Shown here: positions 22,558-64,000 of the stretch, piece by piece | Layout: the number at the start of each line of letters is the position of its first letter | Position numbering within the stretch: the stretch's first letter is position 1 | Origin: Phyllobates terribilis | Taxonomy: Eukaryota | DNA length: 64,000 bases | Direction of reading: 5' to 3' | Assembly: GCF_046119375.1 (NCBI RefSeq) | Contig: NW_027362762.1 | Coordinates: 254,944,001 to 255,008,000 of the forward strand | The notes under the pieces: model-generated | Databases searched by the model: none | Told to the model about the DNA's origin: nothing | The model's input: the letters and a program-made list of their open reading frames with translations, nothing else | Program-made: the position numbers and the translations under genes

Positions 22558-22559
22558 TA

Positions 22560-41800: not shown

Positions 41801-44800
41801 TTTGGAGGAGTAGTGGAGGTCGCAGTAGCTTAACAAAACGGTTTTAATCCCCCTTGTAAGAGACGTGGAGGTCAGAGTGGTTAAACAATACGGTTTTAAT
41901 GCCCCTTGGAAGAGTGGTGGAGGTCCCAGTAGTTTAACAAGACATTTTTAATGCCCCTTGGAAAAGTGGTGGAGGTCACAGTAGCGTAGCAAGACAGTTT
42001 TAATGCCCCTTAGAAGAGTGGTGGTCACAGTAGCTTAGCAAGACAGTTTTAATGCCCCTTGGAAGAATGGTGGAGGTCGCAGTTGAATAAAAAGACAATA
42101 TCAATGCCCCTTGGGAGAGTGGTGGAGTTTGCATTATCTTAACAAGACGGTTTTAATGCCCCTTGGCAAAGTGGTGGAGGTTGCAGTAGCTTAACAAGAC
42201 GGTTTTAATGCCCTTTGGAAGACACGTGGAGGTTAGAGTGGTTTAACAAGACAGTTTTAATGCCCCTTGGAAGAGTGGTGGAGGTAACAGTAGCTTAACA
42301 AGATGGTTTTAATGCCCCTTGGAAGAGTGGTGGAGGTCACAGTAGCTTAACAAGACAGTTTAAATGCCCCTTGGAATAGTGGTGTAGGTCACAGTGGTTT
42401 AACAAGATGGTTTGATGCCCCTTGGAAGAGTGGTGGAGGTCACAGTAGCTTAACAAGACATTTCAATGCCCCTTGGAAAAGTGGTGGAGGTCACAGTAGC
42501 TGAACAAGACTGTTTAAATGCCCCTTGGAAGAGACGTGGAGGTCACAGTGGAATAAAAAGACAATATTATTGCCGTTTGGAAGAGTCGTGGAGGTCGCAG
42601 TGGAATAAAAAGACAATATCGATGCCCCTTGGAAGAGACGTGGAGGTCATAGTAACTTAACAAGACAGTTTTAATGCTCCTTGGAATTGCGGTGGAGGTA
42701 ACAGTAGCTTAACAAGATGGTTTAATGCCCCTTGGAAGAGTGGTGGAGGTCACTGTAGCTTAACAAGACAGTTTAAATGCCCCTTGGAATAGTGGTGGAG
42801 GTCAGAGTAGCTTAACAACACAGTTTTAATGCCCCTTGGAAGAGACGTGGAGGTCACAGTGGTTTAACAAGATCGTTTGATGACCCTTGGAAGAGACGTG
42901 GAGGTCACAGTGGTTTAACAAGATCGTTTGATGACCCTTGGAAGAGTTTTGGAGGTCACAGTAGCTTAACAAGACATTTTATTGCCCCTTGGAAGAGTGG
43001 TGGAGGTCACAGTAGCTTAACAAGACGGTTTTAATGCCCCTTGGAAGAGACATGGAGGTCAGAGTGGTTTAAGAAAATGGTTTTAATGCCACTTGGAAAA
43101 GTGCTGGAGGTCGCAGTAGCTTAACAAGACAGTTTTAATGCCCCTTGGAAGAGACGTGGAGGTCACAATGGTTTAACAAGATCGTTTGATGCCCCTTGGA
43201 AGAGGGGTGGAGGTCACAGTAGCTTAACAAGACATTTTAATGTCCCCTTGGAAGAGTGGTGGAGGTCACAGTAGCTGAACAAGACGGTTTAAATGCCCCT
43301 TGGAAGAGACGTGGAGGTCACAGTGGAATAAAAAGACAATGTCAATGCCCTTTGGAAGAGTCGTGGAGGTCGCAGTGGAATAAAAAGACAATATCGATGC
43401 CCCTTTGAAGAGACGTGGAGGTCGCAGTAGCTTTACAAGACAGTTTTAATGCCCCTTGGAAGAGCGGTGGAGGTGGCAGTAACTTAACAAGACGGTTTTA
43501 CTTCCCCTTGAAAGAGTGGTGGAGGTCGCAGTAGCTTAAAAAGACGGTTTTAATGCCCATTGGAAGAGACATAGAGGTCAAAGTGCTTTAATAAGACGGT
43601 TTTAATGCCCCTTGGAAAAGTGGTGGAGGTCACAGAAGCTTAACAAGACAGTTTTAATGCCCCTTGGAAAAGAGGTGGAGGTCACAGTAGCTTAACAAGA
43701 CAGTTTTAATGCCCCTTGGAAGAGACTTGGAGGTAAGAGTGGTTAAACAAGACGGTGTTATTGCCCCTTGGAAGAGTGGTGGAGGTCACAGTAGCTTAAC
43801 AAGACGGTTTTAATGCCCCTTGGAAGAGACATGGAGGTCAGACTGGTTTAAGAAGACGGTTTTAATGCCCCTTGGTAAAGTGGTGGAGGTCACAGTATCT
43901 TAACAAGACAGTTTTAATGCCCCTTGGAAGAGACGTGGAGGTCAGAGTGGTTAAACAAGACGGTTTTATTGCCCCTTGGAAGAGTGGTGGAGGTCACAGT
44001 AGCTTAACAAGACGGTTTAAATGCCCCTTGGAAAAGATGTGGAGGTCACAATGGAATAAAAATACAACATCAATGCCCCTTAGAAGCGTGGTGGAGGAAG
44101 TTGTAGCTTAACAAGACGGTTTTAATGCCCCTTGGAAAAGTGTTGGAGTTCGCAGAAGCTTAACAAGACGGTTTAAATGCCCCTTGGAAGAGCGGTGGAG
44201 GTGAGAGTGTTTTAACAAGATGGTTTTAATGCCTCCCCACTGGAAAAGAAGTGGAGGTCACAGTGGAATAAAAAGACAATATCAATGCCCCTTAGATGAG
44301 TGGTGGAGGTCGTAGTAGCTTAACAAGACGGTTTAAATGCCCCTTGGAAAGGATGTGGAGGTCACAATGGAATAAAAATACAACATCAATGCCCCTTATA
44401 AGCATGGTGGAGGTAGTAGTAGCTTAACAAGACTGTTTTAATGCCCCTTGGAAAAGTGTTGGAGTTCGCAGAAGCTTAACAAGATGGTTTTAATGCCCCT
44501 TGGAAGAGCCGTGGAGGTGAGAGTGTTTTAACAAGACGGTTTTAATGCCACCCCCTTGGAAAAGACGTGGAGGTCACAGTGGAATAAAAAGACAATATCA
44601 ATGCCCTTAGATAAGTGGTGGAGGTCGTAGTAGCTTAACAAGATGGTTTTAATGCCCCTTGGAAGAGTGGCGGAGGTCACAGTAACTTAACAAGACAGTT
44701 CAAATGTCTCTTGGAAGAGACTTGGAGGTCACAGGAGAATAAAAAGACAATTTCAATGCCCCTTGGAAGAGTGGTGCAGGTCCCAGTGGAATAAAAAGAC

Positions 44801-46372
44801 AATATCCATGATCCTTAGTAGAGTGGTGGAGGTCGTAGTAGCTTAACAAGACGGTTTTAATGCCCCTTTGAAGAGACTTGGAGGTCAGAGTGGTTTAACA
44901 AGACGGTTTTAATGTCCCTTGGAAAAGTGGTGGAGGTCACCGTAGTTAACAAGACGGTTTTAATGCCCTTTGGAAGAGTGGTGGAGGTCACAGTAGCTTA
45001 GCAATACGGTTTTAATGCCCCTTGGAAGAGACTTGGAGGTCAGAGTGGTTTAACAAGACGGTTTTAATGCCACTTGGAAAAGTGCTGGAGGTCATAGTAG
45101 TTAACAAGACGGTTTTAATGCCTCTTGGAAGAGTGGTGGAGGTCACAGTAGCTTAACAAGACAGTTCTAATGCCCCTTGGAAGAGACATGTAGGTCAGAG
45201 TGGTTTAACTAGACGGTTTTAATGCCCCTAGGAAGAGTGGTGGAGGTCACAGTAGATTAACAAGACGGTTTAAATGCCCCTTGGAAAAGACGTGGAGGTC
45301 ACAGTGGAATAAAAAGACAATATCAATGCCCCTTGGAAGAGTGGTGGAGGTCGCAGTGGATTAAAAAGACAATATCAATACCCCTTGGAAGAGTGGTGGA
45401 GGTCTCAGTAGCTTAACACGACGTTTTTAATGCCCCTTGGAAGAGACGTCGAGGTCAGAGTGGTTTAACAAGATGGCTTTAATGCCCCTTGGAAGAGTGG
45501 TGGAGGTCGCAGTAGCTTAACAAGATGGTTTTAATGCCCCTTGGAAGAGTGGTGGAGGTCGCAGTGGAATAAAAAGACAATATCAATGCCCTTTGGAAGA
45601 GTGGTGGAGGTCACAGTAGCTTAACAAGATGGTTTTAATGCCCCTTGGAAAAGTGGTGGAGATCGCAGGAGCTTAATAAGATGGTTTTAATGCCCCTTGT
45701 AAAAGACGTGGAGGTCAGAGTTGTTTAACAAGACGGTTTTATTGCCCCTTGGAAGAGTTGTGGAGGTCACAGTAGCTTAACAAGACAGTTTTAATGCCCC
45801 TTGGGAGAGTTGTGGAGATCACAGTAGCTTAACAAGACAGTTAATGCCCTTTGGAAAATACGTGGAGGTAAAAGTGTTTTAACAAGATGGTTTTAATGCC
45901 CCTTGGAAGAGAGTTGGACGTCACAGTAGCTTAACTAGACGGTTTTAATGCCCCTTGGAAGAGTGGTGGATGTCACAGTAGCTGAACAAGACGGTTTAAT
46001 TGCCCCTTGGAAGAGACGTGGAGTTTACAGTGGAATAAAAAGACAATATCAATGCCCATTGGAAGAGTGGTGGAGGTGGCAGTGGAATAAAAAGACAATA
46101 TTAATGCCCCTTGGAAGAGTGGTGGAGGTCGCAGAAGCTTAACAAGACGGTTTTAATGCCCCTTGGAAAAGTGGTGGACGTCGCATTAGCTCAACAAAAT
46201 GGTTTTAATGCCCCTTGGAAGAGACGTGGAGGTACAAGGGGTTTAACAAGATGGTTTTAATGCCACTTGGAAGAGTGTTGGAGGTCACAGTAGCTTAACA
46301 AGATGGTTTTAATGCCTCTTGGAAGAGTGGTGGAGGTCACAGTAGCTTAACAAGATAGTTTTAGTGCCCCTT
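35820..46372 (+). repeat. 52-bp satellite array, ~200 monomers, with higher-order repeats
   Basis: Consensus AATGCCCCTTGGAAGAGTGGTGGAGGTCGCAGTAGCTTAACAAGACGGTTTT (e.g. 36441, 36493); three monomer variants; diagnostic blocks repeat at 1455, 1663 and 1716 bp. Confidence 0.97.
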
Positions 46373-46661
46373 ACAAGAGCCATGCAGTACAGCATATTAA
46401 AAACATTATTCCCATTTTTGGGGTGTGGGTCTCCCATAGTCTTTGCCTATGCCTTCCATGCAAAAGCTGCCAAAAATTCGGACGGAGGAACTTGCAATGC
46501 TGACAACATGGACCACAGTCACCCTGGTGCTGTAGTGGTTGTGGAGGCTGAGGATAAATAGAAGAACTTAAAGCATCCGAAATGAGGAAGCGTATACCCA
46601 TGTGTGGTTGTGAAGCGGTGCATGGGAATACACCTCCCGAAATAACACAGTGGATTTGACT

Positions 46662-48230
46662 CTATGTTACTCTGCTGTCATTTGGTGGTGATGAGAAGTC
46701 TGGCCCAATCCAGCCCTTGTTCATTTTGATAAGGGTCAGCTTTTCAGCATTGTCAGTTGACAGGCGAGTGCGCTTATCAGTTATAATTCCCCCACCGGCA
46801 CTAAAAACACACTCCGATAACACGCTAGTGGAAGGACAGGCCTGTACCTCCAAGGCGTACAGAGCGAGTTCATTCCAAGTGTCCAGCTTGGATACCCAAT
46901 AATTAAAAGGCACAGAGGAATGACGGAGGACGCTGGTACAGTCGGCAAGGTACTCCCTCACCATCTTTTGAAACTTTCCACTCCTTGTGAGAGTATCCCG
47001 CGCCTCAGGGCCTGTAAGCTGGGCGGGTCTCAGAAAACTGTCCCAGAACGTTGACAGTGTTCCCCTGCCTCTGCAGAATTGGAGTTGCGTTTCTCTCGCC
47101 TGTACGCCTCTGCCGCTAGCGTGTTCAGATGGGATTTTTTTTTAACAATTCTGCAGCAAGGGCCTTCTGGTACTGCCCCATTTTTGTAGACCTCTCCACC
47201 TCAGGATTAAGAGAGTGAAAGTTCTACTTGTATCGGGGCTCTAAAAGTGTCACCAACCAGTAATGACTGTCACCCAACATTTTTACAATGCGAGGGTACC
47301 GGTTAAGGCAGCATAACATAAAGTCAGCCATGCGCGCCAGACTGGTAATGGGCAAGACTTCCGTGTCCTCACCAAGATGACGACTGACCATGCTCTCCTC
47401 CTCCTCCCCCTCCTCCTCCTCCCCCCTGTCCTCAGGCCACCCACGCTTAACCGATGGTATGACAGTTGTAGAGGTACTACCGTCTTCAGCGCATGATACC
47501 AGCTCCTGTTCTTCCTCCTCCTCCTCTCCCTCATTGTCCCCCAATGCACGTTGGGATGAGATGAGGCTGGGCTGTGTGTAATCGCCTGTTACGGCTTCTT
47601 GATCCATCTTATCATACTCTGGCTGCAAAGCCTCCTCTTTAATTCTCTGCAGAGAGTGTTGCAAGAGACAGACAAGTGAAATGCTGAGACTAATGATGGC
47701 GTCATCGCCACTCACCATCTTGGTGGATTCCTCAAAGTTTGTAAGGATGGTACATATGTCAGACATCCAGGTCCACTCCTGAGGTCTTATGTGTGGAGTC
47801 TGACCTGAATATTGACGACTTTGTTGCAGCTGGTACTCCACAACTGCTTTCTTCTGCTCACAAATCGTTTGCAACATGTGGAGGGTAGAATTCCAATGTG
47901 AGGGTACATCACACACCAGTCGGTGTGCCAGAAGCTGCAAACGCTGCTGCAGCACAGCAGGGGCGGCGGAAGCTGTAGCCGACTTGCGAAAATGAGCTGA
48001 CAGGTGGCGTACTTTGACGAGCAGATCTGGTAACTCGGGGTATGATTTAAGAAACCGCTGAACCACGAGGTTAAGCACATGAGCCAGGCATGGAACGTGT
48101 GTGATCTCGCCTCTTCACAGAGCAGCCACCAGGTTACGGCCATTGTCACACACGACCATGCATAGATGTAGGTTCAGCGGTCTCAGCCACAGATCTCCCT
48201 GCTCTTTCACAGCTGTCCACAACTCACAAG
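46662..48230 (-). pseudogene. hAT-C transposase, C-terminal half
   Basis: MLNLVVQRFL..CDVPSHWNSTLHML..; CPSTSVLSECVFSAGGGIITDKRTRLS. Confidence 0.92.
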
Positions 48231-49146
48231 TAGAGATGAGCGGTGTTCGACTTGAACTGTTCGCCAATCTCAAATTCGAGCTGTTTTGGGCGGTGTTCGA
48301 GCCGTTCGGCGAACACGAACGATTTGAAAAAAATTCGGCTTTTCGAGGTTATGTTCGATAACTGTTCGTGCACCAAAATCATAACTGGATTTTTTCTCAG
48401 AAATGATGAAAATTAATGTTAATACCAGATTGAGTGTACAGCGGGGCGGGGGGAGGGGCAGGGGATGGATCTCTGCCGGAATAATGAAGATCTCCATTTT
48501 TTTTTTCTCTTTCCCGCATTTACAGTCGGGAGGTGCAATCTGTCAGCCTATCAGCAGCGCACACACGGAGCGAAGTGCTTTTTTTCACACAAGCAAGGGC
48601 ATGTGTCATTGGCAGTGTATGTCACATGTCCTTGCCCTATAAGACCCAGCCATTTTCCCTGTCGCCACCATTTTCTCACTGCTGCAGCTGCGTGTTAGAC
48701 GGCACCGCTGTTGCTGTGTGCGCTATACCTTGTTAATTTCAAGCCAATTTTCGCACAAATCTACAGATAGCTTGGGAGTAGGGAATAGTTGTGATTGCAG
48801 TCCTTTTAAGGACTAGGTTACAGCATTTCCTATGACTTTTATCAGGCACGTCTGTGCTCTTAAATAGATAGGTTGGGAGTAAAGACTAATTGTAATTGCA
48901 GTCCTTTTCAGGACTAAGTTAGATCAGTTCCTATCAGTTTTTGCCAGGCAGGTCTGTGCCAGTGCTGTGCAAGTTTTTTTCACAGCATTTGGCTAAATCT
49001 AGCAAAGCTAATCCTTTTTGGCCTATTGCAGAGTGTGTTAGTCAGTGGAGTAGCCTATCTGTGTTGCAAGCTACACCACCTGTGTATAGAATACCAATTT
49101 TTTTACTGCACCTAGTGATGTAAAACATTTTGGGCATAGCATCATT

Positions 49147-50092
49147 CTATTAGTCCATCTATACTGACCTCCATAAGGTTGCAAATTGAATATAATTTTT
49201 TTCTGCATCTTCCTCTGAAAAAATATTTGGGCTTCTAGCTGTGTGTGGGACTTGTTCTATTAGTCCATCTATACTGACCTCCATCAGGTTGCAAATTGAA
49301 TATAATTTTTTTCTGCATCTAGCTCTGAAAAAATATTTGGCCTTCTAGCAGTGTGTGGGACTTGTTCTATTAGTCCATCTATACTGACCTCCATCAGGTT
49401 GCAAATTGAATATAATATTATTCTGCATCTAGCTCTGAAAAAATATTTGGCCTTCTAGCAGTGTGTGGGACTTGTTCTATTAGTCCATCTATACTGACCT
49501 CCATCAGGTTGCAAATTGAATATAATATTTTTCTGCATCTAGCTCTGAAAAAATATTTGGCCTTCTAGCAGTGTGTGGGACTTGGTCTATTAGTTCATCT
49601 ATACTGACCTCCATCAGGTTGCAAATTGAATATAATATTTTTCTGCATCTAGCTCTGAAAAAATATTTGGGCTTCTAGCAGTGTGTGGGACTTGTTCTAT
49701 TAGTCCATCTATACTGACCTCCATCAGGTTGCAAATTGAATATAATATTTTTCTGCATCTAGCTCTGAAAAAATATTTGGCCTTTTAGCAGTGTGTGGGA
49801 CTTGTTCTATTAGTCCATCTATACTGACCTCCATCAGGTTGCAAATTGAATATACTATTTTTCTGCATCTAGCTCTGAAAAAATATTTTGCCTTCTAGCA
49901 GTGTGTGGGACATGTTCTATTAGTTCATCTATACTGACCTCCATCACGTTGCAAATTGAATATAATTTTTTTCTGCATCTAGCTCTGAAAAAATATTTGG
50001 CCTTCTAGCTGTGTGTGGGACTTGTTCTATTAGTCCATCTATACTGACCTCCATCAGGTTGCAAATTGAATATAATTTTTTTCTGCATCTAA
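49147..50092 (+). repeat. Homogeneous tandem array of ~8.6 x 110-bp units upstream of the hAT-D ATG
   Basis: CTATTAGT(C/T)CATC at 49147, 49257, 49367, 49477, 49587, 49697, 49807, 49917, 50027. Confidence 0.97.
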
Positions 50093-50207
50093 CCCAGACA
50101 ATAGTTTTGGCCTAATTCCACAGTTTGGCCTCTCAGCTCTGCTCGGTTCCCATCCATTGTTTTTTTGTGCAAACAACTCCAGAGTTGTGAATTAGTTAAC
50201 CACCAAA

Positions 50208-53200
50208 ATGAGTGGAAAAAGGCCTGCTGCTGGTGGAAACGGGAATAGGCGTGTTGGGAAGGGAAAAAAAGGTTGTGTCCGTGGAGTAGGTGTTAAAGCA
50301 ACAGTAACATCTGCAGAAGAAAGACCGTCTTCCAGCAATACTAAAATGTCTACTTCTTTTAGCGGACAATGTGATAAGATCCCTTTCTTACGGCCACGCC
50401 AATCGCTACAAATTCAAGATGAGGCACAAAAACAGCAGGTGCTTCAACGGATATCAAGTGCTCCTTTAAGTGGGCTCTCCTCCACATCAACTTCAACATC
50501 ACAAATACTCCAGTCCTCAGAGGTGTCACCCCAATCACACTTGCTTCCTCACAGCTCCCAAATCTCCAGCTGCCCGTCTGAGTATGAGGTAGAACAGATG
50601 GTTGAGTCTGCAGAGCTGTTTACTCATACTATAGCTTGGGAATCAGAGGTTGGCTCCAGCGCTTCTGTGAATCCAGACGAGGAAATGATCTGCACTGATG
50701 CCCAGAACCTTTATGAGTCGGATCCAGGACCAGACGCAGAAGGTTCTGACCATAATGTAGACCCTCATTCCCAAACTGTAACTCCTGTTGGTGGAGACAA
50801 TGAGGAAGACGATGATGAGACTCAAATACCTGATGGAGCGACAACTTTAGTTTTTTGTCAGTGCAGGAACAGGATGGCTCTGAGGACGACGGGTGTGATT
50901 ACACACAGGGTGATGATGATGAGGTTGGAGATCCCACTTACTGTCAACCCACAGTCAGCCAAGAGATGAGGTCAGCAGAGGAGGTGGAGGAGGATGCTAG
51001 TGATGACGAGGTCAGGTTGCGCCTTCCTGGACAGAGACGTAGTACTGGAAGCACGTCAACAACTGCATCCTCAAACACAACTCTGCCTCTGAACACAAGT
51101 CGTGGTGGCTCTTCAGGTTGCATGGGTGCTAAGCCTTGCATAGCCTTGGCATTTTTTCAGATCGATAAAGATGACCCAACTCATGTTATCTGTAACATTT
51201 GTCAACAAAAGCTAAGTAGAGGCCAAAAAATACATAGTTTGAGTACTTCATGCAAGAACAGGCACATGGACATGAAGCATAAGTTGCAGTGGGAAGCTCA
51301 CTGTGCTACAAAGTGGCCTAGCCGGCCGGGCCAACCACCGTCTGCCCCATCTTGTGCATCTGTGGCCTCTTCATCCTCTGTGACTGGGGGGACAGCAGTC
51401 ACACCTGTTTTGGGACGCAGACCTGCCACCTCTTTACCCGCAACAGCCAGCGTGATTGGCAGGTCATCATTTTCTTTGGAGGTGGTAACACCAGCTGGTG
51501 TTGAGCGCTGTACGACATCGATAGCACCACCTTTGGATCAAGGCAACCTAACATGTCCGCCTGCATCTTCCTCACAGACCGGCAGTTTGCTGGGGACACC
51601 CTTATCTACCCCGTCTAAGCACAACAGCCAGCCCTCAGTCCCTCAGATGTGGACAAGTAAAAGACCATTTCCTCCTACCCTTGAGAAAGCTAAGAGGTTG
51701 AATTTCACCATCTGCAAGCTCTTGGCTACAGAAATGCTGCCTTTCCGCCTAGTGGACACAGAGGATTTTCGAGACCTTATGTCCGTCGCAGTGCCCCAGT
51801 ACCAGATGCCCAGTCGGCACTACTTCTCAAAGAAAGGTGTGCCTGCGCTCCACCAGCATGTCACACACAACATCACGGCTTCTTTGAGAAAGTCTGTGTG
51901 TGACAGGGTGCATTTCACCACAGACACTTGGATGAGTAGGCAAGGACAGGGGCGTTACATGTCGCTGACTGGGCAATGGGTAACTATGGTGACAGCAGGA
52001 CAAGGGGCTGCTGTCCAAGTCTTGCCGTCCCCACGAGTTGTGCGTCAATCCTCTTTATGTCAAAGTTCCTCCACTGCTTCTGCCTCCTCAACCTCCTCTT
52101 GGTCCTCCACCTGCACCCAAAGCCTGTCTGGTCATGCTACAGGCTTTCTAACTGCGGAGAAGGGATCCTGCTCACCTCCTTACTTTGCTGTCAGCAGGGC
52201 TCAACATCATCAGGCGGTTTTTACTTTGAAATGTCTGGGAAATGTGAGTCACATAGCTGAGGAGTTGTGGTCAGCTCTGGAGAACCAATTTCATGAATGG
52301 TTGTCTCCACTGGACCTGAAACCAGGGAAGGCCGTGTGTGACAATGCTGCAAACCTGGGTGCGGCACTTTTCCGGGGCAATGTCACACACGTGCCTTGTA
52401 TGGCTCACGTGTTGAACCTGGTTGTCCAGCAATTTTTAGCCCACTATCCCGGACTAGATGGCCTTCTGCAGAGGGCACGGTCACTGTGTGCTCACTTCCG
52501 CTGTTCGCATCCCGCAGCTCAGCGACTTACATCTCTACAGAAGTCGTTGGGCCTGCCACTTCACCGGCTAAAATGCGATGTGCCTACCCGGTGGAATTCA
52601 ACTCTGCACATGTTGCAGCGACTGTGGCAGCACCGACAAGCCCTGGTGCAATACGTTCTGATGTATAGCCTGGGCCAACGGGATCCAGAGGTGGGGCAAA
52701 TCACGCTGGAGGAGTGGTCTCAGATCAGGGACCTATGCACCCTTCTGCACAGTTTTGAAATGGCAACGAAGATGTTTAGTGCTGACGATGCCATTATCAG
52801 CATGAATATTCCGGTGATTTACATGCTGGAGTACATGTTAAACAGAATTCGGAGTCAGGTGGTAGCACACGAGGAGGTAGAGGAAGTAGAGGAGGAGGAG
52901 TTGTATGCGGAAGGGCTAACATCTGCAAGGTCTAGACGGTCGGCAGCACCAAGGCGGCAGGCATGTGAGGGTGGGGGAGATGGCTTTACCAGGGCGCATG
53001 GTAGCAGACAAACTAGTGAAGAAGGTGCAGCAGCCCAGGAAGAAGTGGAGGACGAACTGATGGAAGACTCATCAGATGAGGGAGACCTTGATCACATTTC
53101 TGTTATGCGAGGTTGGGGGGAGAGGACAGAGGAAGGAAGCATGATTGTTACCTCGCCACCAACACAACAGGGACTTGGTACTCCTGGATGCACAAGACAC

Positions 53201-53869
53201 ATGAGTGCCTTCTTGCTGCACTACCTGCATCATGACCCTCGAATTGGGAGAATTAGAAATAATCCTGACTACTGGGTTGCCACACTGTTAGATCCCCGGT
53301 ACAAAAGTAAATTTGCAGAAATAATTCCTGCCATAGAAAGGGATGCACGCATGGAGGAGTATCAGCAGAGTCTGTTGCAGAATCTTACATGTGCTTTTCC
53401 ACAAAACACCAGTGGTGCACGTAGTGAATCTCACAGTTCCAACTTGCCAACCGTGGGACCGTCGAGTGTTCAGCACTCAAACCATAACAGAAACACAGTA
53501 TCTGCTGGTAACATCAATTTTTCGGAATCAGTTCACCACTTTTTTAGCTCATCCTTTGCAAGGCCACAGGAGACAAGAAGTCTGACACATAGTCAACGCC
53601 TAGAGACAATGGTACAGGAGTATATCCAAGTAAACATTGAAGCCATGACTGCGTCACTGGACCCTTGCTATTTTTGGGCTTCCAATCTGGATAAATGGCC
53701 GGAGCTCTCCACTTACGCCTTGGAGATCTTGTCATGCCCCGCAGCCAGCGTTCTGTCTGAACGTGTGTTCAGCGCTGCTGGTGGTGTGCTGACAGATATG
53801 CGCACGCGGCTCTCCACTGATAATGTAGACAGACTCACGTTCATAAAGATGAACAAATCATGGATCTGA
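50208..53869 (+). pseudogene. hAT-D transposase, ~1,220 aa if a single 1-bp frameshift near 50833 is repaired
   Basis: ORF 50208-50969 overlaps ORF 50855-53869; adding one base at CCTGAT(T)GGAGCGAC gives IPDWSDNFSFLSVQEQ. Confidence 0.9.
50966..53869 (+). CDS. Open 967-aa Met-initiated hAT transposase ORF (BED + RNase H-like DDE + dimerisation domain)
   Basis: ICNIC..RHMDMKH BED; FTTDTW (D), VCDNAA (D), CMAH, PTRWNST, ASVLSERVFS (E); no internal stop. Confidence 0.7.
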   Translation: MRSAEEVEEDASDDEVRLRLPGQRRSTGSTSTTASSNTTLPLNTSRGGSSGCMGAKPCIALAFFQIDKDDPTHVICNICQQKLSRGQKIHSLSTSCKNRHMDMKHKLQWEAHCATKWPSRPGQPPSAPSCASVASSSSVTGGTAVTPVLGRRPATSLPATASVIGRSSFSLEVVTPAGVERCTTSIAPPLDQGNLTCPPASSSQTGSLLGTPLSTPSKHNSQPSVPQMWTSKRPFPPTLEKAKRLNFTICKLLATEMLPFRLVDTEDFRDLMSVAVPQYQMPSRHYFSKKGVPALHQHVTHNITASLRKSVCDRVHFTTDTWMSRQGQGRYMSLTGQWVTMVTAGQGAAVQVLPSPRVVRQSSLCQSSSTASASSTSSWSSTCTQSLSGHATGFLTAEKGSCSPPYFAVSRAQHHQAVFTLKCLGNVSHIAEELWSALENQFHEWLSPLDLKPGKAVCDNAANLGAALFRGNVTHVPCMAHVLNLVVQQFLAHYPGLDGLLQRARSLCAHFRCSHPAAQRLTSLQKSLGLPLHRLKCDVPTRWNSTLHMLQRLWQHRQALVQYVLMYSLGQRDPEVGQITLEEWSQIRDLCTLLHSFEMATKMFSADDAIISMNIPVIYMLEYMLNRIRSQVVAHEEVEEVEEEELYAEGLTSARSRRSAAPRRQACEGGGDGFTRAHGSRQTSEEGAAAQEEVEDELMEDSSDEGDLDHISVMRGWGERTEEGSMIVTSPPTQQGLGTPGCTRHMSAFLLHYLHHDPRIGRIRNNPDYWVATLLDPRYKSKFAEIIPAIERDARMEEYQQSLLQNLTCAFPQNTSGARSESHSSNLPTVGPSSVQHSNHNRNTVSAGNINFSESVHHFFSSSFARPQETRSLTHSQRLETMVQEYIQVNIEAMTASLDPCYFWASNLDKWPELSTYALEILSCPAASVLSERVFSAAGGVLTDMRTRLSTDNVDRLTFIKMNKSWI

Positions 53870-54121
53870 AACGACTTTTTTACCCCTGTGTCATCCTGGG
53901 GAGAGTAAAAGCTTGATGATTGGTTAAAATCACCTCACCAACCGTTTTAAGCTTTCAAATTACTAATCATGTTTATCTGTGTCTTGGCTGGAAAATAATT
54001 TGGGCTTTGTAGCAGTGTGCAGTACTGATTCTATTAGGCCATCTATACTAAGCTCCACCAGATTTAAAATTAATAATAATTTTTAGCTGCCTCTAGCCCG
54101 GAAAATAATTTTGGGGCTCCG

Positions 54122-54232
54122 AGATGCGCAAGACACATAAGTGCCTTCTTGCTGCATTACCTGCCACATGGACCTCAGATTGTCAGAATTCGAAGTAATC
54201 CTGACTACTGGGTTGCCACATTCTTTGATCCC
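54122..54232 (+). pseudogene. Second, diverged copy of a hAT-D transposase segment, continuing at 55607-55678
   Basis: Aligns to ~53187-53297; 55607-55678 aligns to ~53387-53459; split by the DD37E element at a TA. Confidence 0.8.
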
Positions 54233-54249
54233 CCACACTCTTCGATCAA

Positions 54250-55606
54250 CCTTTTCATTTTAATAAAGACCAAAAAATTGGTCATTTTTGAAATTATAAG
54301 CATTAGCAGGTTAGCAGAAACTGAAATCAAACAGTTTTCAACTCAAAACTTTATTCTAGGTGATGTTACATTTGCACATAGGACCCCTTGTTCGAAAGGA
54401 GCTTCTGAACTCTCTCGTCCATTGAATTTGTCAGGTTTTGGATGGTTTCTGCTTCAATTGTTTTGCATGAGGACAGAATACCCTCCCTGAGCTGTTGCTT
54501 AGATGTGAACTGCCTCCCGCCATCATAGACACTCCTTTTGCCGATGCTCCAGAGGTTCTGAATGGGGTAGAGGTCAGGAGAGCATGGGGGTCACACCATA
54601 AGTTTGTCCCCTTTAATGCCCATATCAGCCAGAGATGCAGATGTGTTATGTGCAGCATGAGACGGTGCATTATCATGCATGAAAATGATCTTGCTGCAGA
54701 ATACACGGTTCTTCTTCTTGAACCATGGTAGCAAGTGCTGTTTGAGAAACTCCACATACATTATGGAGTTCATCTTTACCCCTTCAGGGATCCTAAAGGG
54801 GCTGACAATCTCTCTCCCCATGATTCCAGCTCAAAACATTACTCCACCTCCTCCTTGTTGGCGCTGTAGTCGTGTTTGCGTGGGGTGTCCATCAACCAGC
54901 CATCCTCCACTCCATCCATCTGGACCATCGAGCATTGCACGGCACTCATCCGTGAACAAAACAGTTTTGAAATCAGTCTTCATGTAATGTTTGGCCCACT
55001 GGAGCCGTTTCTGCTTGTGTGCAGTGGATAGAGGAGGTCGACAGGATGGCGTACGCACAGCTGCAAACCTCTGAAGGACCCTGCATCTTGTTGTTCGGGG
55101 GACGTTGGAGGCGCCAGCAGCTTCAAAAACTTGTCTGCTGCTATGACAAGGCTTTTTTGCCGCTGCTCTTTTAACCTGACGTAATTGCCTGTAGGAAAGA
55201 GTCCTCAATTTGCCCTTATCAGCACGCACACGTGTGTACTGTGAATAAGCTACATACTTCTTGATTGCCAAGACACTTCATCCTGATCATCGCACAATGT
55301 TGATTGTAGTCATGCCTTGACCTAAACAATCCACAATTTGTTGCTTCTCAGCAGCCGACACATCCTTTTTCTTTCCCATTTTGGCAGAAAATGTAGGCTG
55401 CTTAATAATGTGGGACAGCGTTCTTAAGTAGTCTTGCCGTTCATTGGGCCCACCTGCCAAACTAATTAGCACAGGTATCTGCAATTGCTTACAGTGATAT
55501 AAAGAGCCCTGACACACATCACCATCAATGAGTTTAACTGACAAACAAACAAATTCTTCCCTTATCACTCCTAAACACTTTTTGCATAATAATTTGGAAC
55601 ACGGTG
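54250..55606 (-). mobile_element. Decayed DD37E (TRT-like) Tc1/mariner element, distal 3' end deleted
   Basis: 5' TIR CACCGTGTTCCAAATTATTATGCAAA at 55606 followed by TA; MGKKKDVSAAEKQQ; LFTDECRAMLDGPDGW; HDNAPSH; same family as 20989-22557. Confidence 0.9.
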
Positions 55607-55678
55607 TACATGTGCTTTTCCACAAAACACCAGTGGTTCACGTAGTGAATCTTACAGTTCTAACTTCCCAACCGTGGT

Positions 55679-57500
55679 CTGTATGGAGTTGTTCAATAAA
55701 GGGCATAAAATTAAGATAACATAGACGGGAGAGGTCTCTATGAATAGGAATTCCTAAGAATTTGATACCCTGTGAGGGCCAGGCAAAGGGACGGTTGGAC
55801 TGTATGGAATCCTGTATGGATTTGGGGAGGGAGACATCGAGGGCCTCAGACTTCGCTGTATTGATTTTAAAATTTGACCATGTAACAAAGTGATCTATTT
55901 CAGCCATAACAGCAGGGATGGATATATGTGATTGAGTGATATATACTAGGACATCATCAGCAAATAGAGAGCACTTGTACTCGGTGCCTCTCACCTCAAT
56001 CAACCTAATATTGGGGTTATGACGAATTGATGAGATCAGGTGCTCCGTCACTAGGATGTATAAGAGAGGGGACAGAGGACATTCCTGCCTTGTCCCATTG
56101 GTGATTATGAAAGGTGATGAAAATGTTCTGACGCGCCCCCTTGGCCTTGGGACATCCGGAGCCGGACCCTTTTTGGTGGATGCTGGTGGTTGTAGTCTCC
56201 GTGGCGGCGACCCGGTTCCATGGCTCAGGGCGGTCAAACCAGTGGCGGAACTATTTATGTGGTTTTGATGTTTAAATGTCCGACTATGCCACCCGTAGAT
56301 TGCGGTCAGAGTGAACCGCCGCTGCAGGGCTGACCGCTGAGGCTGGTGTTGTGGGTGCAGCAGAGCGTAGCATAACTCCCCACTGGAGGAGTATAGCCTC
56401 AGGGCAGTGTATGCGGAGGATGGGGGTGATGGTGCAGGGCAGCAGCAGTAACGACACGGAGTCAGTGATGCATTCCAGGGCCTTTACTCACAGTTCTAAT
56501 TATCCAGACCACTTCTGCAGGTAACGGCTGCCCACGTCGTACTGTGCTCACCAGGTGAGGGGCTCAGACAACTCCCAGATAACTTTGGAGCGCTTCACAG
56601 GACCCCCTTTGTGTGTCCTTTGTCTGGCCTTTCTTACCAACCCTTCTGTCCGGCTGCCTCGGGCCTTCTCTTGGTAAACTTGGCGCCAGTTTCCCTGACC
56701 CTATGTGCTGCCCTCCTAGCAGGTGTAGCGAGGGGCTGCACCACATAAAATGTCACAGCCTCCGGTTTCTAGCTGAGGGTCGTTTCCCGCCTCCACTAGT
56801 TTCGGGGACCGGTCTCCCCCTTTGGCCTGACCCCTCCACGCAGGTGGATTCGGTCGTGCGGTGGCGACTCGCCCGTTCACACCCCTGGGATCCCTTCGTT
56901 CCTGGTTCCTGGAGCCTTCTCCGCTCCTCTTACTTCCTTCTCCCTCTTCCAGGCCTGGGCCTCTGTTATTAGGCCCGCCTCTGGAGCAGAGCTCATGCAG
57001 AGCCCCTGCTCCCTGTCACTTCTGCTCAGACTTCTCTGCACTGAACTAAGATGGTGCCCACCTTTTATACTCCCTTCTCAATGCACCCAAGAACTGCTTC
57101 CTCCCTGCTCCTGCACTACAGGGTTCCCCTTCCTCAGTGTTCCCTCCCCCCACTCCAGCCAGGGATAGGGACTGTCGTGCCCATCTCAGGGGCATATTGG
57201 TCGCCTTGCCCCACGGCAATGTGGTGTAATGCATGCAGGTGTCGGGGTCCTGATCCACACTCCATCCTTACCTGAGAGTGAGATATCACACCTCTGGGTG
57301 AGGTGCAATACCTCTGCAGCAACCGAGCCCTCGGGGTGCTACAGTTCCATTTATCTACAGCCTAGGTGAAGCATTGCGATACAGGGCCGTGATTTTGGCT
57401 ATAAAAGGGTCCCCTAGACCCCTACCCCAAGCTTTTTAAGGGAATAATATATAGCGTGCCAGGAGACTCTATGGAATGCTTTCTCAGCATCCAGCGACAG
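55679..57500 (-). mobile_element. L1-clade LINE reverse transcriptase fragment, split by a solo LTR
   Basis: LSLDAEKAFHRVSW (~57500) ... NGT|FSSPFIITNGTRQECPLSPLLY ... SLFADDVLVY ... IKFLGI. Confidence 0.9.
56129..57343 (-). mobile_element. Solo LTR (1,215 bp), probably Gypsy-type
   Basis: Minus strand TGTAGCACCCC...GGGGGCGCGTCA; 4-bp TSD GTTC at 56125-56128 and 57344-57347; minus-strand TATAAAA (~57065) and AGTAAA (~56483). Confidence 0.85.
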
Positions 57501-57617
57501 TATCTAATTACAAATTTTTAACTGCATCTAGCCCAGGAAATACTTTGTGCCTAGTAGCAGTGTCTGCTAGTCAGCGGATTATCCCAGCTGTTAAGCAAGC
57601 TACACCACCTGTAGTTC

Positions 57618-57880
57618 GGACACTTAATTTTTTCAAATGAAATGCTTCGGGGCCACGGGATACTCAGTGAAGAGCATCAGGAGGCACCACAAGGCATAGG
57701 GGCTGGGACTGGCGGTAGGACGCCTTGCAGTGGACAGTCGAGCTCGATCCTTATCAAAGCTTTTTAACTGCAGCAGCTTTAGTGGACGCTACTGGAGCTG
57801 GAATTACGCGGCTGCTGGCATGAGACTTGCCCTTCAATTGATCCTTGTAAAAGGATTTAAAGTTTATTCATTCAAGTTAG
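57618..57880 (-). pseudogene. Degenerate 18S rRNA-derived fragment (530-loop region and flanks)
   Basis: GCTTTTTAACTGCAGCA, CGCTACTGGAGCTGGAATTACGCGGCTGCTGGCA, GACTTGCCCT, AAAGGATTTAAAG and TAATTTTTTCAAA..GCTTCGGG occur in the order of the reverse complement of eukaryotic 18S (GTGCCAGCAGCCGCGGTAATTCCAGCTCCAATAGCG). Confidence 0.88.
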
Positions 57881-58385
57881 AGAGACAATTTAAATTAAAA
57901 AGCTTAGAGCTGCCTCCACCACAGGGGGGCTCACTCGACCCACCAGTGGACAGGCACCAGTATTGGGAGAGGTGGGCTGGCCGTCAGGGTCCACCGCGGC
58001 TCTGGCACAAACCTGGCGACACGGAGGTGGCACGGGCAGGAACGGACTGGCTGTGTCGGCTTCTCACTTTTTGGATTTTAGAAGGGCATGACATGCCTAT
58101 ATCTGTGTCTCCCCCTCCTTTTACTCCTCCACCTCTTTTCTTTTCGCATGACTATATGTACTTGTCACTTTTCCATGTGTTAGTTATGTCTTCTGAGCAG
58201 TTTGTCAGCTTTTGGACACCTTTGAAGGTGTTTTCTATGTGTTTCTATGTGCTTTTGTTTGCCTGCCATTGGTTTTAACGGTGTTCGAAGGTGTTCGACG
58301 AACAGTTCGACGAACAGTTCGGCGAACACAAGGGTGTTCGACGAACAGAACCGAACTCGAACACTACGGGGGTGGCTCAACACTA

Positions 58386-60128
58386 CTGACAAGCAGTGTG
58401 AGGTTTATTACCTAAGCTTAAAAGTTTCAGCACAGCCTGTTGCCGCTTGGCTAAGGCAGTACTGCAGTGCTTCCAGCTTGTAACTTATGTGGTGATATCT
58501 GAGATGAATGCTGAACCTGAGGAGGAGGAGGATGATGCGCAGGAGCTGTACACTGTGGTGTGGGGCAACTCTGACTGACATAGGGCCCGCAATCCTCGGT
58601 GTGGGGAGGATGTGTTCCGTCGCAAGGTCCGACTGGGTCCCGGCTTCCACTGTGTTTACCCAGTGTGCCGTCAGGGAGATGTACCGTCCCTGGCCACAAG
58701 TACTTGTCCACGTGTCCGTTGTCAGGAGGACTCTCCCTGTAACTGCTTTGTTGAGGGCACGGCAGATGTTTTGGGACACGTACTTGTGTAGTGCAGGGAT
58801 GGCAAAACAGTGTCGTCTGGGGACCGAGTACCGAGGGACAGCCACCGCCATAAGGTTGCGGAAGGATCCGTCTCCACGAGCCTAAAAGGCAGCATTTCCA
58901 TTGCAAGCAGTCGTTAAATGTGCGAATTTAGGACTGTGGCCTGTGGGGCGCTGGCTGCAAAAGGTCTGGGATATGGACAATTGAACGCTGCGGTGGGACG
59001 TGGATGTTGATGCTGTTTCTTGAGAAACTGCCATAACAAGTGAAGACTGAGAGGAGGGGGCATTTTTGCATGCGGTATGGACAGGGGACTGCCTTGCACG
59101 CACAACAGGTGGTTCTCCTATGAGCAAAACAGTGGAAGAAGCAGTTGTGACACCCGCTGACACTGGTCGGGGACCCTGGAGTTTGCCCAACAAAATCGGG
59201 TGCTTTGCTGACATGTGCCTGATTATGCTGGTGGTGGTCAGGCTGGTAGTTTTGTCACCCCTGCTGATGCTGGCATGGCAGGTGGTACAAATGACCTTTT
59301 TGGGGTTAACAGCAGAGTCTTTAAAAAAATTCCGGACTCTGGAAGACCTACAGGTTGTACTGGCAACGTCCCTCGTGTTGGTGTTATGGGGAACTGTTGC
59401 CCGCCTTCTGTGTGTGGCCACCACACTGCTTCTTCCTGCCTGTTGGGGTACTCTGCCTCCCTCCCCTGTGTGCTGCTGGCCTCGCTCTGCATGTCCTCCT
59501 GCCACGTTGGGTCAGTTACTAGATCATCCACCCCCTCCTCCTCTTCCACATGTGCACCACGATCCTCCTCCTCACTTCATGGCAATTGTGTCTCGTCATC
59601 GTTCACCTCTTGTGACAAGTTGCCAGCGTCGACTTCCTCTGGCCGTGGCTGTTCAAATATTTGGCTATCGCTACATGGGATCTCCTCTTCCACCACTTCA
59701 AGCGGAGCAGGTGAGGTGCACAAATATGGAAATGGACCAGTGAACAGCTCTTCAGAGTGTCCAAGTGTGGGATCAGTTGCTGTCTGACGACACTCGGCAT
59801 GGTGGGAGGAAGGAGCATCAGGGTGAGGAGGAGTATGCGGTCGAGACTCATGGCTAATAAAACTTGACCGTGTGGAAAACAGACCGGAGGTGGTGGTGCC
59901 CAGGTAACTGGAATTATTATCTGCTATCCAATTAACAACCTGTTCACACTGATCAGTTCGCAATACTAGTTTTGTAGTGTGCTTCCCTAGTAATTCGGTC
60001 AAGAAGTGGGAGCGAGAAGATGTGGCTTTTGGTTGTGGCACATTTTCACCTTGGCCACGGCCCCGTCCTCTACACGCACCATCACCAGAACGTCCAGTTC
60101 CACGTCCCTTGCCACGCGCCTTGCCCTT
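58386..60128 (-). pseudogene. hAT-C transposase, N-terminal half
   Basis: (start ATG->AAG)GKARGKGRGTG; QVVNWIADN; BED VRNFFK..VICTTC..RHMSAKHP; VLLTTDTWTS..YISLTAHWVN. Confidence 0.92.
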
Positions 60129-60179
60129 TGTAAATGAAGTAAAATAGCTTACACTCGCACTATCAATGGAAAAAGGGTA

Positions 60180-60590: not shown

Positions 60591-61017
60591 ACTAGTGTTG
60601 AGCATTCCGATACTGAAATATCGGGTATTGGCCGATATTCACGGTATAGGAATTCCGATACTTAGTTCCGATACTTTTAGAATATCGGATACCGGAATCG
60701 GAAGTTCCCATAATGCAATGAGCCAGTTTCATTTTATTCAGCCAATGAGGATCCTAAGAAGTGTGGGCACATCCTGTTAGGCATGTAGGCATCTTAACTA
60801 ATGGCATGGCTGTGATTGGCTGCTGAAATGAAGTCATGATGCACTATAAAAGCCGCCGCCGCCATTTTGAGCTCACTCTGCTGTGAATTCAGTTAGGGAT
60901 AGGACGCTGCTGTTCTGAGGGACAGTTTTAGCTATGTATTTGCTCTATTCTGCTTTACCCAAGCTAGTTTATAAACCGCTGTGCCTTGCAGTGCTAATGC
61001 ACAGTTCTCTGTGCTGT

Positions 61018-61505
61018 TCACGGCTGTCTGCAAGGTCTCTGTGTGTGAGTGCAGCTCATGCTGTAGTGTGTGCTTCAGCCACGTCTGGTTGTAGTGCACT
61101 CAGCGTGCGTCACTGCCTCATACATTGTCCTTTTTTGTTAATTGATAATTTTTGCTGATTTCTCCTATTAGTGTGGTGGTTCCATCCGTATCCAGCTAGA
61201 TTGGTTCCATGCACACTATATAGGAGTAGATAGAGAAGCTTTATTTTGCCTTGCAGCGCTAGTGCACAGTGCTCTGCATCTGCACTGTTCACGGCTGTCT
61301 GCAACTGTGTGTGAGTGCAGCTCACGCTGTAGTGTGTGCTTCAGCCACGTCTGGTTGTAGTATGCTCAGCGTGCGCCACTGCCTCATACATTGTCCTTTT
61401 ATGCTAATTGATCATTTTTCCTGATTTCTCCTATTAGTGTGTTGGTTCCATCCCTATCCAGCTAGATTGGTTCCAAACACGCTATATAGGAGTAGATAGA
61501 GAAGC
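61018..61505 (+). repeat. 2 x ~270-bp duplication in the hAT-E 5' arm
   Basis: TTCACGGCTGTCTGCAA...GGAGTAGATAGAGAAGC at 61018-61238 and 61288-61505. Confidence 0.9.
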
Positions 61506-61857
61506 CTTTCTGCAGCCTTGTGCCCTGCAGCTCCAGCCAGATTACTATTAGCCTATTTTTTGTAGCCTCATCTATTGCATTGTAGGTTACCTTCCTGCAT
61601 TGTAATAGCTACAAAAAGTTTGTGATACTATCGGTATTACATCTTTGGGCACATCCATTGTCTTTTTGTGACAAAAAAAAAGCTAAATAAAGTTCACCAA
61701 ACACTCCACTTTACAGTTGTGTAGGCCACATTAGCTCATATTAAAGTCTAGTCCACACTTTATCAAATTTGTGTTTCTTATACCTGTTAGCTGCTGTTCA
61801 GGAATAAGCACACTAAGCCCTTTGTACTTTTCTGCCTATCTTTATCAGTCTACGAAG

Positions 61858-64000
61858 ATGAAGAAGGCAGGGAGTAAGGCATGTGGTCATGGTCGTGGGC
61901 GTGGAGCTTCTACAAGGAGAGGACGTGAGGATTCTGTGCCTGCAGGAAGAGGACGTGTGGATTCTGTGCCTGCTGCGCGCACCAGTGACTCAGCATCCCC
62001 CAGTTTTACCAGGGAAGAGTCCTTTATGCGCAGCTTTGTAGGAGCTAGCCGTATCCCACTGCTGCGGGAGGACCAAATTGAAGCCGCTGTCGGATGGATT
62101 GCAGATCCTCTCAGGTCTTGAGCACTGAAGAGCACCCATCTGTCTCTTCACCACCTGCCAAATTGCCCAGGCAGTCAGAGAGCCCTGGACATGAGCCATC
62201 TCTACTTCTGTTCTCTGAATCTCTTAGTTTGGAAACAGGGGGCCAGCTAAGCAGAATTCGAGAATTTGAAGAAGAGGTAGTATGCAGTGATGCGCAACCG
62301 TTTTGTCTCTCTGAATCTGAAGAGGCGGGTGGGCCAGTGCCTATGTTCAGCAGCACACCTCAGTACGCATCTGATGATGAGACTCAGGTGCTACTTTCTG
62401 GTGCGTACTGTGCTGTCGAGACTACTCAGGAGAAGCAGTTGTTTGAAGAGGGGGGTGTAGATGATGAGGTCCTTGACCCATCATGGCGTGAGGGACAGGA
62501 AGGTGGTGGGAGTAGCTCTGAGGAAGAGATTCCCGAAACGGCCCAAAAAGGAGGGAGAGGGAGGGGGCAGACTTGGTTGCCTGTAGCCTCCACTTCGGCA
62601 CCCATTAGGAGCATGGCTCTTCTAAAACCCAAAGCGGGCGCTCCCAAGACTTGCAGTGCCTGGTCCTTTTTTGACACAGTTGCAGATGACATTTGCTTTG
62701 TCAAATGCAAGCTGTGTAATCAGAAGGTGAAAAGAGGGAAAAGTGTCAGCAACCTCAATACCACAAATATGTGGAAACATGTGCGGACCCATCATGTGGT
62801 GCAGTTACAAAGACACACTGAAGACCTAGGCCAACCTTCAGCGCCACCTACCACCTATTCAGCTCATGTTGTAGCCTCTTCCTCCAGCTCACACACAGCT
62901 GGTTCTGCTTCCTCACAGGATTGCCATGGAAGAACCTCTGGCACTGTTGTACAGAGACACAGTGTAATTCCACCCACAGCACCACGTTCCCTGTCATCCT
63001 CACACTCCCAGGCCAGTCTACAGTCATCATTAGCACAGGCATGGGAGAAAAGGCACCCATACTCGGCAAACCACCCCCGAGCACAGGCTCTGAATGCTGG
63101 CATTGCAAAACTACTGGCCCTTGAAATGCTATCCTTCAGGCTGGTGGAGACTGACACCTTCCGTAACTTGATGGCATTGGCAGTCCCACAATACAACGTG
63201 CCCAGCCGCTTTTATTTCAGCAGGCAAGCCATCCCTGCCCTGCAATAGCATGTGGAGGGAAAAATTAAACATGCGCTACAAAACGCTGTCAGTAGCAAGG
63301 TCCACCTGACCACCGATGCGTGGACCAGTAAGCATGGACAGGGACGATACCCTTCCCTCACTGCCCATTGGGTAAATGTTGTGGAGTCGGGTACAGATCT
63401 TGAGAGTGGCACTGTACGTGTTCTGCCAACTCCAAGGGTTGCAGGAATCCAGTCTGTACACATTGACTCCTCCTCATACTCCTGTTACTCTGAATCAGCG
63501 CTGCAGGAGCCGTCACGGTCTACCTCCACATCGACCCGTGAACGGTTACCTGTTACGACCGATATGAGCACAGCCGTGGCCAAACGTCAACAGGCCGTAT
63601 TAAAATTAATTTCTTTGGGGAATCGAAGCCACACAGCGCAGGAGCTCTGTAATGCCATCAAGCAGCAGAGCAACATGTGGTTTGTGCCAGCGAATCTCCA
63701 GCTAGGCATGGTAGTGTGTGACAATGGCCGAAATCTGGTGGCAGCTCTGGGCCTAGGCAACCTCACTCACATCCCATGTCTGGCACATGTGCTCAACTTG
63801 GTTGTGCAGAGTTTTTTGAGGGACTATCCGGATCTTGATGCACTGCTGCAAAAGGTCCGCTTAGAGTGCGCTCACTTGCGGCGTTCCAGCAACGCAAGAT
63901 CGCGCATTGCAGCTCTGCAGCGCCGATTACGTCTTCCGAAACATCGCATCATATGTGACCTACCCACCAGGTGGAATTCAACGTTACATATGTTAGAGAG
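61858..64000 (+). pseudogene. hAT-E transposase (partial; one frameshift near 62100 and one TAG at 63246-63248)
   Basis: MKKAGSK..GRGRG; BED AWSFF..VKCKLC..KHVRTHH; after the TAG the frame is open to the window end: HLTTDAW, VCDNG, CLAH, CDLPTRWNST. Confidence 0.92.

Follow-up and report, generated by a model that had tools for sequence, protein, structure and literature searches.

Does a transposon carry old passengers from locus to locus, or do they gather within it where it lies? The question is raised by a 64,000-bp stretch of the Phyllobates terribilis genome (contig NW_027362762.1, positions 254,944,001 to 255,008,000; referred to here as the window), in which an Ac-group hAT element, hAT-D, occupies positions 48231-58385 (10,155 bp). 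A preliminary description of this DNA had presented hAT-D as a near-intact element with pieces of a TRT-type Tc1 element, an L1, a long terminal repeat (LTR) and 18S rDNA in its 3' arm, all captured earlier and moving with it as a fixed cassette, and thus as a Pack-hAT candidate. We find that the 3' arm consists of two things, a 3,393-bp nest of transposable element (TE) debris (54111-57503) and an 18S piece outside the nest. Most of the arm looks like ordinary nesting and recombination. We suggest, at roughly even confidence, that an older sibling copy survives as a nested ruin in the 3.4-kb block, which was joined to a younger copy by one template switch; hAT-D is 6.8 kb long when the block is left out.

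hAT-D is inserted into the transposase of an older minus-strand hAT, referred to here as the host. The window contains a paralog of the host (14395-17863), and this is uninterrupted at about 16132-16136, where hAT-D sits in the host. Thus, the whole hAT-D stretch occupies one target site. The termini, TAGAGATGAGC and TAGTGTTGAGC, agree at 9 of 11 bases, and subterminal GTTCG/CGAAC clusters are present at the left and right ends. The target-site duplication (TSD), CTCACAAG and CTGACAAG, agrees at 7 of 8 bases, with a chance probability of about 4e-4; the change is in the right copy, CTGACAAG, and the left, CTCACAAG, retains the base of the paralog. The single mismatch had been counted correctly in the preliminary description, but it says nothing in favour of youth, as 1 mismatch in 8 is 12.5% pairwise divergence with a confidence interval (CI) of 0.3-53%. 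In the right end, 13 CpG are retained and about one site is a candidate for decay; a second copy differs from this end at 2 of 54 positions, for which P would be 0.12 at an age of 7%. With the 15 CpG kept in the left end, both ends of hAT-D look young. The right-end pattern has two matches in the window, where 0.00 are expected. The second hAT-D right end is at window positions 1-55, with only 55 bp inside the window, and is followed by Tc1-like sequence. As expected, the right end had 0 loci in an exact-pattern scan of a collection of prokaryote genomes.

The change in the right-hand TSD copy and the old interior of the right part, described below, would both be seen if an old resident copy, with an old TSD and an old nested tail, had been overwritten in its 5' 5.9 kb by a young copy through gene conversion or gap repair. 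However, the right end, with its 13 CpG and its 2/54 differences, does not look like that of an old resident, and the probability of a TSD mismatch is 0.21 even at 1.5% decay. We regard overwriting as very improbable.

The transposase open reading frame (ORF) contains a BED finger (PF02892, E = 6.7e-6) and a dimerisation domain (PF05699, E = 8.3e-14). The motifs TTDTW, VCDN, PCMAH, RWNS and SERVFS occur once each, and we take these to represent the D-D-E triad, CxxH and RW motifs of hAT transposases. The preliminary description reported one lesion in 3.66 kb. There are two disruptive lesions in 3.70 kb: a 1-bp frameshift near 50833, and a premature TGA at 53867-53869, which had been overlooked. 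A FIKMN-type motif near the end is present in 34 of the 59 homologs examined, and all 34 extend at least 13 residues past it (32 of them 13-17), while the hAT-D ORF extends just 4; the TGA is therefore premature. Furthermore, the frame beyond it continues to 53908, and the Ranitomeya imitator model has Arg at that codon. When compared with the best 35 of 120 homologs among the matches listed, hAT-D departs at 7 of the 80 columns with ≥95% conservation (the median homolog departs at 2.7%, and only 3 of 35 homologs do worse). With the conservation threshold set at 90%, it departs at 11 of 134 columns. Some of these departures may be subfamily differences, since the homologs are distant. Transition and indel rates were estimated from four pairs of repeats within the window, which have 106 substitutions and 3 frameshifting indels between them. 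Neutral decay simulated at these rates puts the ORF at about 1.4% since selection on it ended (support 0.4-3.0%), or at 0.8% (0.1-2.5%) when only the two lesions are counted. The 5' array agrees, with 19 of 880 positions (2.2%) differing between its 8 units and their majority. Thus, the ORF is young but dead, and the transposase died recently. With a frameshift and a premature stop, it does not have the intact frame of an autonomous hAT, and any movement of hAT-D today would require transposase in trans.

What is in the 3' arm? The coordinates of the features are collected in Table 1. The inventory of the preliminary description was right in its parts: a disrupted DD37E element, an internal L1 reverse transcriptase (RT) piece, an LTR, a diverged transposase duplicate and a diverged 18S fragment are all there, and the junctions that it gave (54232/54250, 55606, 55678, 57500 and 57618) are within 4 bp of ours (54233/54246, 55606, 55678, 57503 and 57614). 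It did not include 54110/54111, where the native arm joins the duplicate through a short TTGG-type homology. The duplicate is in two pieces, with 88 bp absent between them, and piece 2 opens with the TA dinucleotide that the Tc1 element targeted. Since the intact terminal inverted repeat (TIR) at 55606 and the TA lie inside the duplicate, the Tc1 element integrated there by its own route. Its transposase has D-37-E spacing in a single frame, with four stops and no frameshift, and the third catalytic residue is changed from E to Q; the residue is E in a related Tc1 copy at 21651-22337. Two of the stops are within 27 bp (55268-55294) flanked by ATTG/CAAT, and the opposite strand of this segment reads IAKTLHPDHRT, which we take to be a helix-turn-helix motif; the segment is a probable 27-bp microinversion of the helix-turn-helix. 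The other end of the Tc1 element is deleted, with the loss of about 220 bp including the other TIR. A later deletion took the 88 bp of the duplicate together with this end, leaving the 14-bp filler.

The L1-type RT piece (Pfam RVT_1, PF00078, E = 6.1e-13) lacks both ends. It is closest to amphibian L1-type RTs, with seven homolog matches, the best at 55% to a Xenopus RT, and we take its motifs to be those of L1. The frame is continuous with the Xenopus homologs across the 1,215-bp TG...CA insert, with no loss. Solo LTRs have TG...CA ends and a TSD of 4-6 bp, and the insert has both; as its own GTTC duplication lies inside a continuous L1 frame, the LTR integrated by itself into the L1. Thus, the capture of these pieces one by one does not fit either the Tc1 element or the LTR. 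The 3' side of the L1 stops inside the RT at 55678 and lacks the poly(A) tail and the TSD that target-primed insertion leaves. An L1 that inserted and then suffered a deletion would look the same here as one captured during repair.

The 18S match exceeds the gathering score of RF01960. Its alignment is firm at about 57760-57875 and of low confidence in the variable part. The piece does not belong to the block but is flanked on both sides by native arm sequence; its left edge shares AATTTTTT with the arm repeat unit, and the distal arm and right end together make up about 500 bp downstream of it. The arm junctions show short homology or templated filler. A phmmer search with the distal-arm frame 57883-58275 against 1.84 billion representatives gave 0 matches, although this is a weak test, as it covers one frame of six, and tblastn of 146 proteins against the arm gave no match in the LTR or the distal arm. 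Two frames in the arm were considered as genes and rejected, one of 192 aa (57700-58278) and one of 136 aa (54080-54490); neither has a Pfam match, and both read through junctions.

Table 1. Features of hAT-D and of the host hAT that it splits (window positions).
Feature	Position	Strand	Remarks
Host hAT (older), 3' part of transposase, split by hAT-D	46507..48230	-	80% to paralog 16136-17863; continuous with other half in paralog
Left TSD copy, CTCACAAG	48223..48230	+	base as in paralog
Left end, 11-bp TIR and GTTCG/CGAAC cluster	48231..48380	+	15 CpG in 150 bp
5' arm array, 8.6 units of 110 bp	49145..50091	+	
hAT transposase, ~1,233 codons	50208..53908	+	BED finger, D-D-E, CxxH, dimerisation domain
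Native 3' arm, 1.5 diverged units of 110-bp repeat (~74%)	53948..54110	+	
Transposase duplicate piece 1 (= 53175-53297)	54111..54233	+	103/123 bases identical
Filler at deletion junction	54234..54247	+	templated copy of 54217-54230, 12/14 identical
DD37E (TRT-type) Tc1 element	54246..55606	-	337-codon frame, 4 stops, TIR intact at 55606
Transposase duplicate piece 2 (= 53386-53456)	55607..55677	+	67/71 bases identical
L1-type RT, downstream piece, open frame	55678..56128	-	ends at 55678 with 2-bp homology, no poly(A)
Solo LTR (probable), TG...CA, 1,215 bp	56129..57343	.	GTTC at 56125-56128 and 57344-57347
L1-type RT, upstream piece, 5'-truncated	57344..57503	-	frameshift near 57420 and one stop
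Native arm resumes	57504..57613	+	unit related to 48997-49083 (77%)
18S rRNA fragment, ~267 bp, model positions ~511-785	57614..57880	-	Rfam RF01960, 61.3 bits, E 6.7e-14
Distal 3' arm	57881..58270	+	no match elsewhere
Right end, GTTCG/CGAAC cluster and TIR	58271..58385	+	52/54 bases = second right end at window 2-55
Right TSD copy, CTGACAAG	58386..58393	+	carries single change
Host hAT, 5' part of transposase	58386..60146	-	76% to paralog 14395-16132

The ages of the layers were compared with that of the ORF. The duplicate and the ORF were aligned over 60 codons and polarised with one Ranitomeya gene model as the outgroup. Eight changes are private to the duplicate and 3 to hAT-D, 2 codons differ in both, and 3 changes are silent. 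The probability of 8 private amino-acid changes in 60 codons is 0.0008 at 1.5% decay and 0.043 at 3%, and these counts place the origin of the duplicate before the death of the ORF. The 18S piece is changed at 7 of the 61 upper-case consensus positions (11.5%, CI 4.7-22%, counted by eye; P = 0.002 at 3%), positions at which vertebrate 18S agrees with the consensus, and it too is older than the death of the ORF, judging from its sequence.

The other layers do not stand apart in this way. The Tc1 element was compared with the two arms of its fold-back derivative at window 20987-22559. This derivative is flanked by TA, has two 666-bp arms from the 3' end of the element (22/665 differ), and is placed between two minisatellite arrays. 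The copy in the hAT-D arm has 14 private sites of 445 (3.1%, CI 1.7-5.2%), compared with 8 and 10 for the two fold-back arms; its branch includes the divergence from the founder of the comparison copy, and so the value is an upper bound. The Tc1 element and the ORF fit a common age of 2.4% (p = 0.10), although with the lesions alone, leaving out the amino-acid data, p is 0.036. Over its roughly 600 bp the L1 carries two lesions (P = 0.12 at 1.5% and 0.34 at 3%), and it departs at 6 of 40 invariant columns, compared with 0-13% when each homolog is left out in turn; this comparison used only six of the seven matches, the distant one being dropped, and several departures are Y/F swaps. The layers were not resolved by CpG observed/expected ratios, which are 0.37-0.53 for the larger coding and LTR layers. 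On these data, neither the Tc1 element nor the L1 can be told apart from the ORF in age, and these two and the LTR are not demonstrably older. The proposal that the pieces in the arm are old is thus borne out, relative to the death of the ORF, for the duplicate and the 18S piece but not for the other three.

Could the Tc1 element, the L1 and the LTR then have inserted after hAT-D arrived here, into a family arm that already held the duplicate and the 18S piece, with the two deletions following? The intervals for the Tc1 element and the two L1 lesions overlap the 0.4-3.0% of the ORF, and the window, which is nearly all mobile DNA, holds a close derivative of the Tc1 element (94%, at 20987-22559). 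However, the three insertions and two deletions are all in the 3' arm, with none in the 5,880-bp 5' part (P = 0.004-0.015, post hoc; 0.02-0.05 for the insertions alone), and no nested insert was seen in about 12 kb of window sequence that is 0.5-2% old. This clustered placement is the strongest sign that the block has had a longer history, and nesting in place is improbable. It and the overwriting of a resident copy fit less well than either a sibling ruin or the cassette lineage discussed below. Tandem duplication in place after arrival was also considered and rejected, as it would need an ORF about 6% decayed, for which the probability of one stop or fewer is 0.001-0.002.

Our preferred reading of the block as the ruin of a sibling copy is as follows. 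The order of the nesting events in the block is shown by its junctions. In an older sibling, a TA within a piece of hAT-D transposase would have received a Tc1 element. The L1 would have received an LTR element, later reduced to a solo LTR, and two deletions would have trimmed the nest. A microhomology-guided template switch, during gap filling or by fork switching, may then have left the arm of the younger copy at 54110 and re-entered it beyond 57503, in which case few copies, or this one alone, would have the block. The nest opens with a stretch of hAT-D's own transposase and was assembled within it, which favours this origin. One template switch would explain why the block starts in this way, why the damage is clustered, and why the ends and the ORF are young. 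Old sibling copies are at hand, because hAT-in-hAT nesting occurs twice more in the window, with hAT-D in the host and the hAT at 60593.

Several points weigh against this origin. No donor copy was seen in the window, and a tandem duplication of 53175-54110 in one long-lived lineage would yield the same junctions. In addition, the sign test of 8 versus 3 changes is not significant (p = 0.23), the outgroup is a single gene model from another species, and the two duplicate pieces are unequally diverged (16% versus 6%, p = 0.04). Age and position are also what suggest that the 18S piece belongs to the whole family, and the protein search with the distal arm gave 0 matches. We nevertheless think it fairly probable that an ancestor of the family acquired the 18S piece by a template switch at the AATTTTTT homology, and that it is now a fixed, probably neutral, part of the arm.

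The long-lived lineage just mentioned is the closest to what was first proposed for this locus. One hAT-D lineage would have duplicated its own 3' region and gathered the Tc1 element, the L1 and the LTR in an arm that it could spare, its transposase frame being maintained by selection; it would jump as a 10-kb cassette shared by its copies. A duplicate older than the death of the ORF, damage confined to the arm and two young ends are all expected in such a lineage. The test on lesions alone makes the Tc1 element older than the ORF (p = 0.036), and the 14-bp filler, which is younger than the Tc1 element, already differs at 2 sites. Multicopy Pack-hATs are known in Xenopus (PMC8277862, sections 7 and 9). 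However, the Tc1 element and the ORF also fit the single age of 2.4% (p = 0.10), with the Tc1 branch an upper bound, and three insertions would be required in a 1-2-kb arm of one surviving lineage. Moreover, no second copy with the 54111-57503 block was found, and nothing else in the 64-kb window matches the LTR, L1 or 18S pieces. Old content in an arm does not in itself imply carriage, because most Pack-TIRs are single-copy and were filled after insertion (PMC8277862, sections 7-8). We consider the cassette lineage rather unlikely, and it is slightly more doubtful still that a full-size vertebrate hAT lineage with a working transposase spread a 10-kb patchwork to many loci, shuttling dead Tc1, L1, LTR and rDNA sequence. 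If it did so, the copy numbers and ages of the passengers, and dispersed rDNA signals, would partly reflect hitchhiking. A multicopy block would mean that a transposase-bearing DNA element spreads other classes of element in a vertebrate and biases repeat age landscapes. On the preferred reading, as a sibling ruin, the block has little significance, since a genome so full of TEs is expected to contain transposons that have nested and recombined.

How does hAT-D compare with known systems? The best named relatives of its transposase are ZBED4-like and ZBED6-like models from dendrobatid and other frogs, with 38-44% identity to the full-length ones, and two Ranitomeya gene-model fragments of the hAT-D family align at 83% and 77%. 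It is like the Ac-group hATs of Ranitomeya, Dendrobates, Phyllobates, Anomaloglossus and Xenopus in its BED finger, D-D-E core, dimerisation domain, 8-bp TSD and short TIR. It differs from them in being broken, 10.2 kb long, and in having the nested block and the 18S piece.

Pack-TIRs, as set out by Tan et al. 2021 (PMC8277862), carry a non-TE insert of 100-5,000 bp with at least 90% identity to a unique parental locus, and 208 of 370 are hAT. Only 4 of 281 unique animal Pack-TIRs (1.4%) are multicopy, 3 of 23 in Xenopus (section 7); 190 of 281 have short homology or filler at their junctions (section 8), and the single-copy ones arise by gap filling after insertion. Judged by that account, hAT-D is like Pack-TIRs such as Pack-hAT-N8_XT in several respects: the termini of a single hAT enclose foreign DNA, its junctions bear short homology or filler, template switching is its likely route of entry, and the inserts are within the size range (3,393 bp for the block and about 267 bp for the 18S piece). 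The 54111-57503 block, however, is entirely hAT, Tc1, L1 or LTR sequence, and only the 18S piece is non-TE DNA. The cargo of hAT-D is thus mostly TE debris (3.4 kb), its 18S piece is old and from a multicopy gene, and its carrier has a near-full transposase, whereas Pack-TIRs in the same account have a short, non-autonomous frame. The 18S piece would probably fall short of 90% identity to a single parent, because 7 of 61 positions are changed and rDNA is multicopy. hAT-D is thus like a Pack-TIR in the way foreign DNA probably entered, and is at most a candidate member. The Pack-hAT label, which had been offered for the arm as a whole, fits the 18S piece at most, the only host-derived piece in the arm.

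TRT elements, as described by Zhang et al. 2016 (PMC5630946), are DD37E elements of about 1.56 kb (XtTRT, 1,573 bp) with a transposase of 338 aa in DrTRT. The Tc1 element of the arm is like these in its D-37-E spacing, 337 codons, TA target and inferred full length of about 1.58 kb, but it is dead and one end is gone. The TRT label comes from spacing and length rather than from a tree that would set it against Mosquito and L18.

In Table 2 of Garcia et al. 2024 (PMC10946416), the rDNA-bearing TEs are Pokey (with the intergenic spacer, IGS), SINE3 and Cassandra (with 5S) and SINE28; the rDNA-derived parts given there are from the IGS, 5S and 28S, with none from 18S and none in a hAT. Like Pokey, SINE3, Cassandra and SINE28, hAT-D has an rDNA fragment inside a mobile element; compared with the elements of that table, no promoter role is in view for its 18S piece. 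A search of the literature by title and abstract gave no case on point of an 18S-derived transposon part, although a catalogued frog hAT with such a piece may exist, and the supplementary Pack-TIR list of PMC8277862 may include rRNA- or TE-bearing cases. If it is fixed in the hAT arm, the 18S fragment is a new pairing among the few rDNA-bearing elements, and it could explain scattered 18S-like matches in TE-rich genomes.

The 64-kb window is almost wholly mobile DNA, and several neighbours of hAT-D are related to its host. Decayed hAT transposases kin to the host are at 2641-5981 (65%) and 14395-17863 (76-80%), with a 133-bp array at 1362-2280 upstream of the former. Directly past the 3' end of the host's transposase, a 52-bp satellite of 197 copies extends over 35834-46379, and kin sequence is present in the paralog 3' arm at 18039-18196 (73-79%); this 10.5-kb satellite looks like the expansion of a repeat from a hAT arm. 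The host-related hATs seem, from their sequences, to have in common that both arms bear tandem arrays. A 507-bp tandem repeat with GC-rich inner units (33684-35131) adjoins a fragment of host-type hAT transposase. A further hAT (60593-64000), with its BED finger at 62082-63248, starts with TAGTGTTGAGC inside the 152-bp repeats of the host 5' arm, and is thus a further case of hAT-in-hAT nesting.

Other elements are of different types. A young Tc1-type element at 12266-13918 has 213-bp TIRs (2/213 differ) and a frameshifted transposase. A Helitron-like coding region at 25405-28850 (Helitron_like_N, E = 4e-33; STPR repeats, E = 6.6e-18) is broken by stops, and directly after its frames is a 2.95-kb palindrome (28820-31772) with arms 97% complementary and a centre of about 130 bp. 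Kindred minisatellite elements with 21-31-bp units are found in both orientations at 8578-10210, 19955-20882 and 22557-24419.

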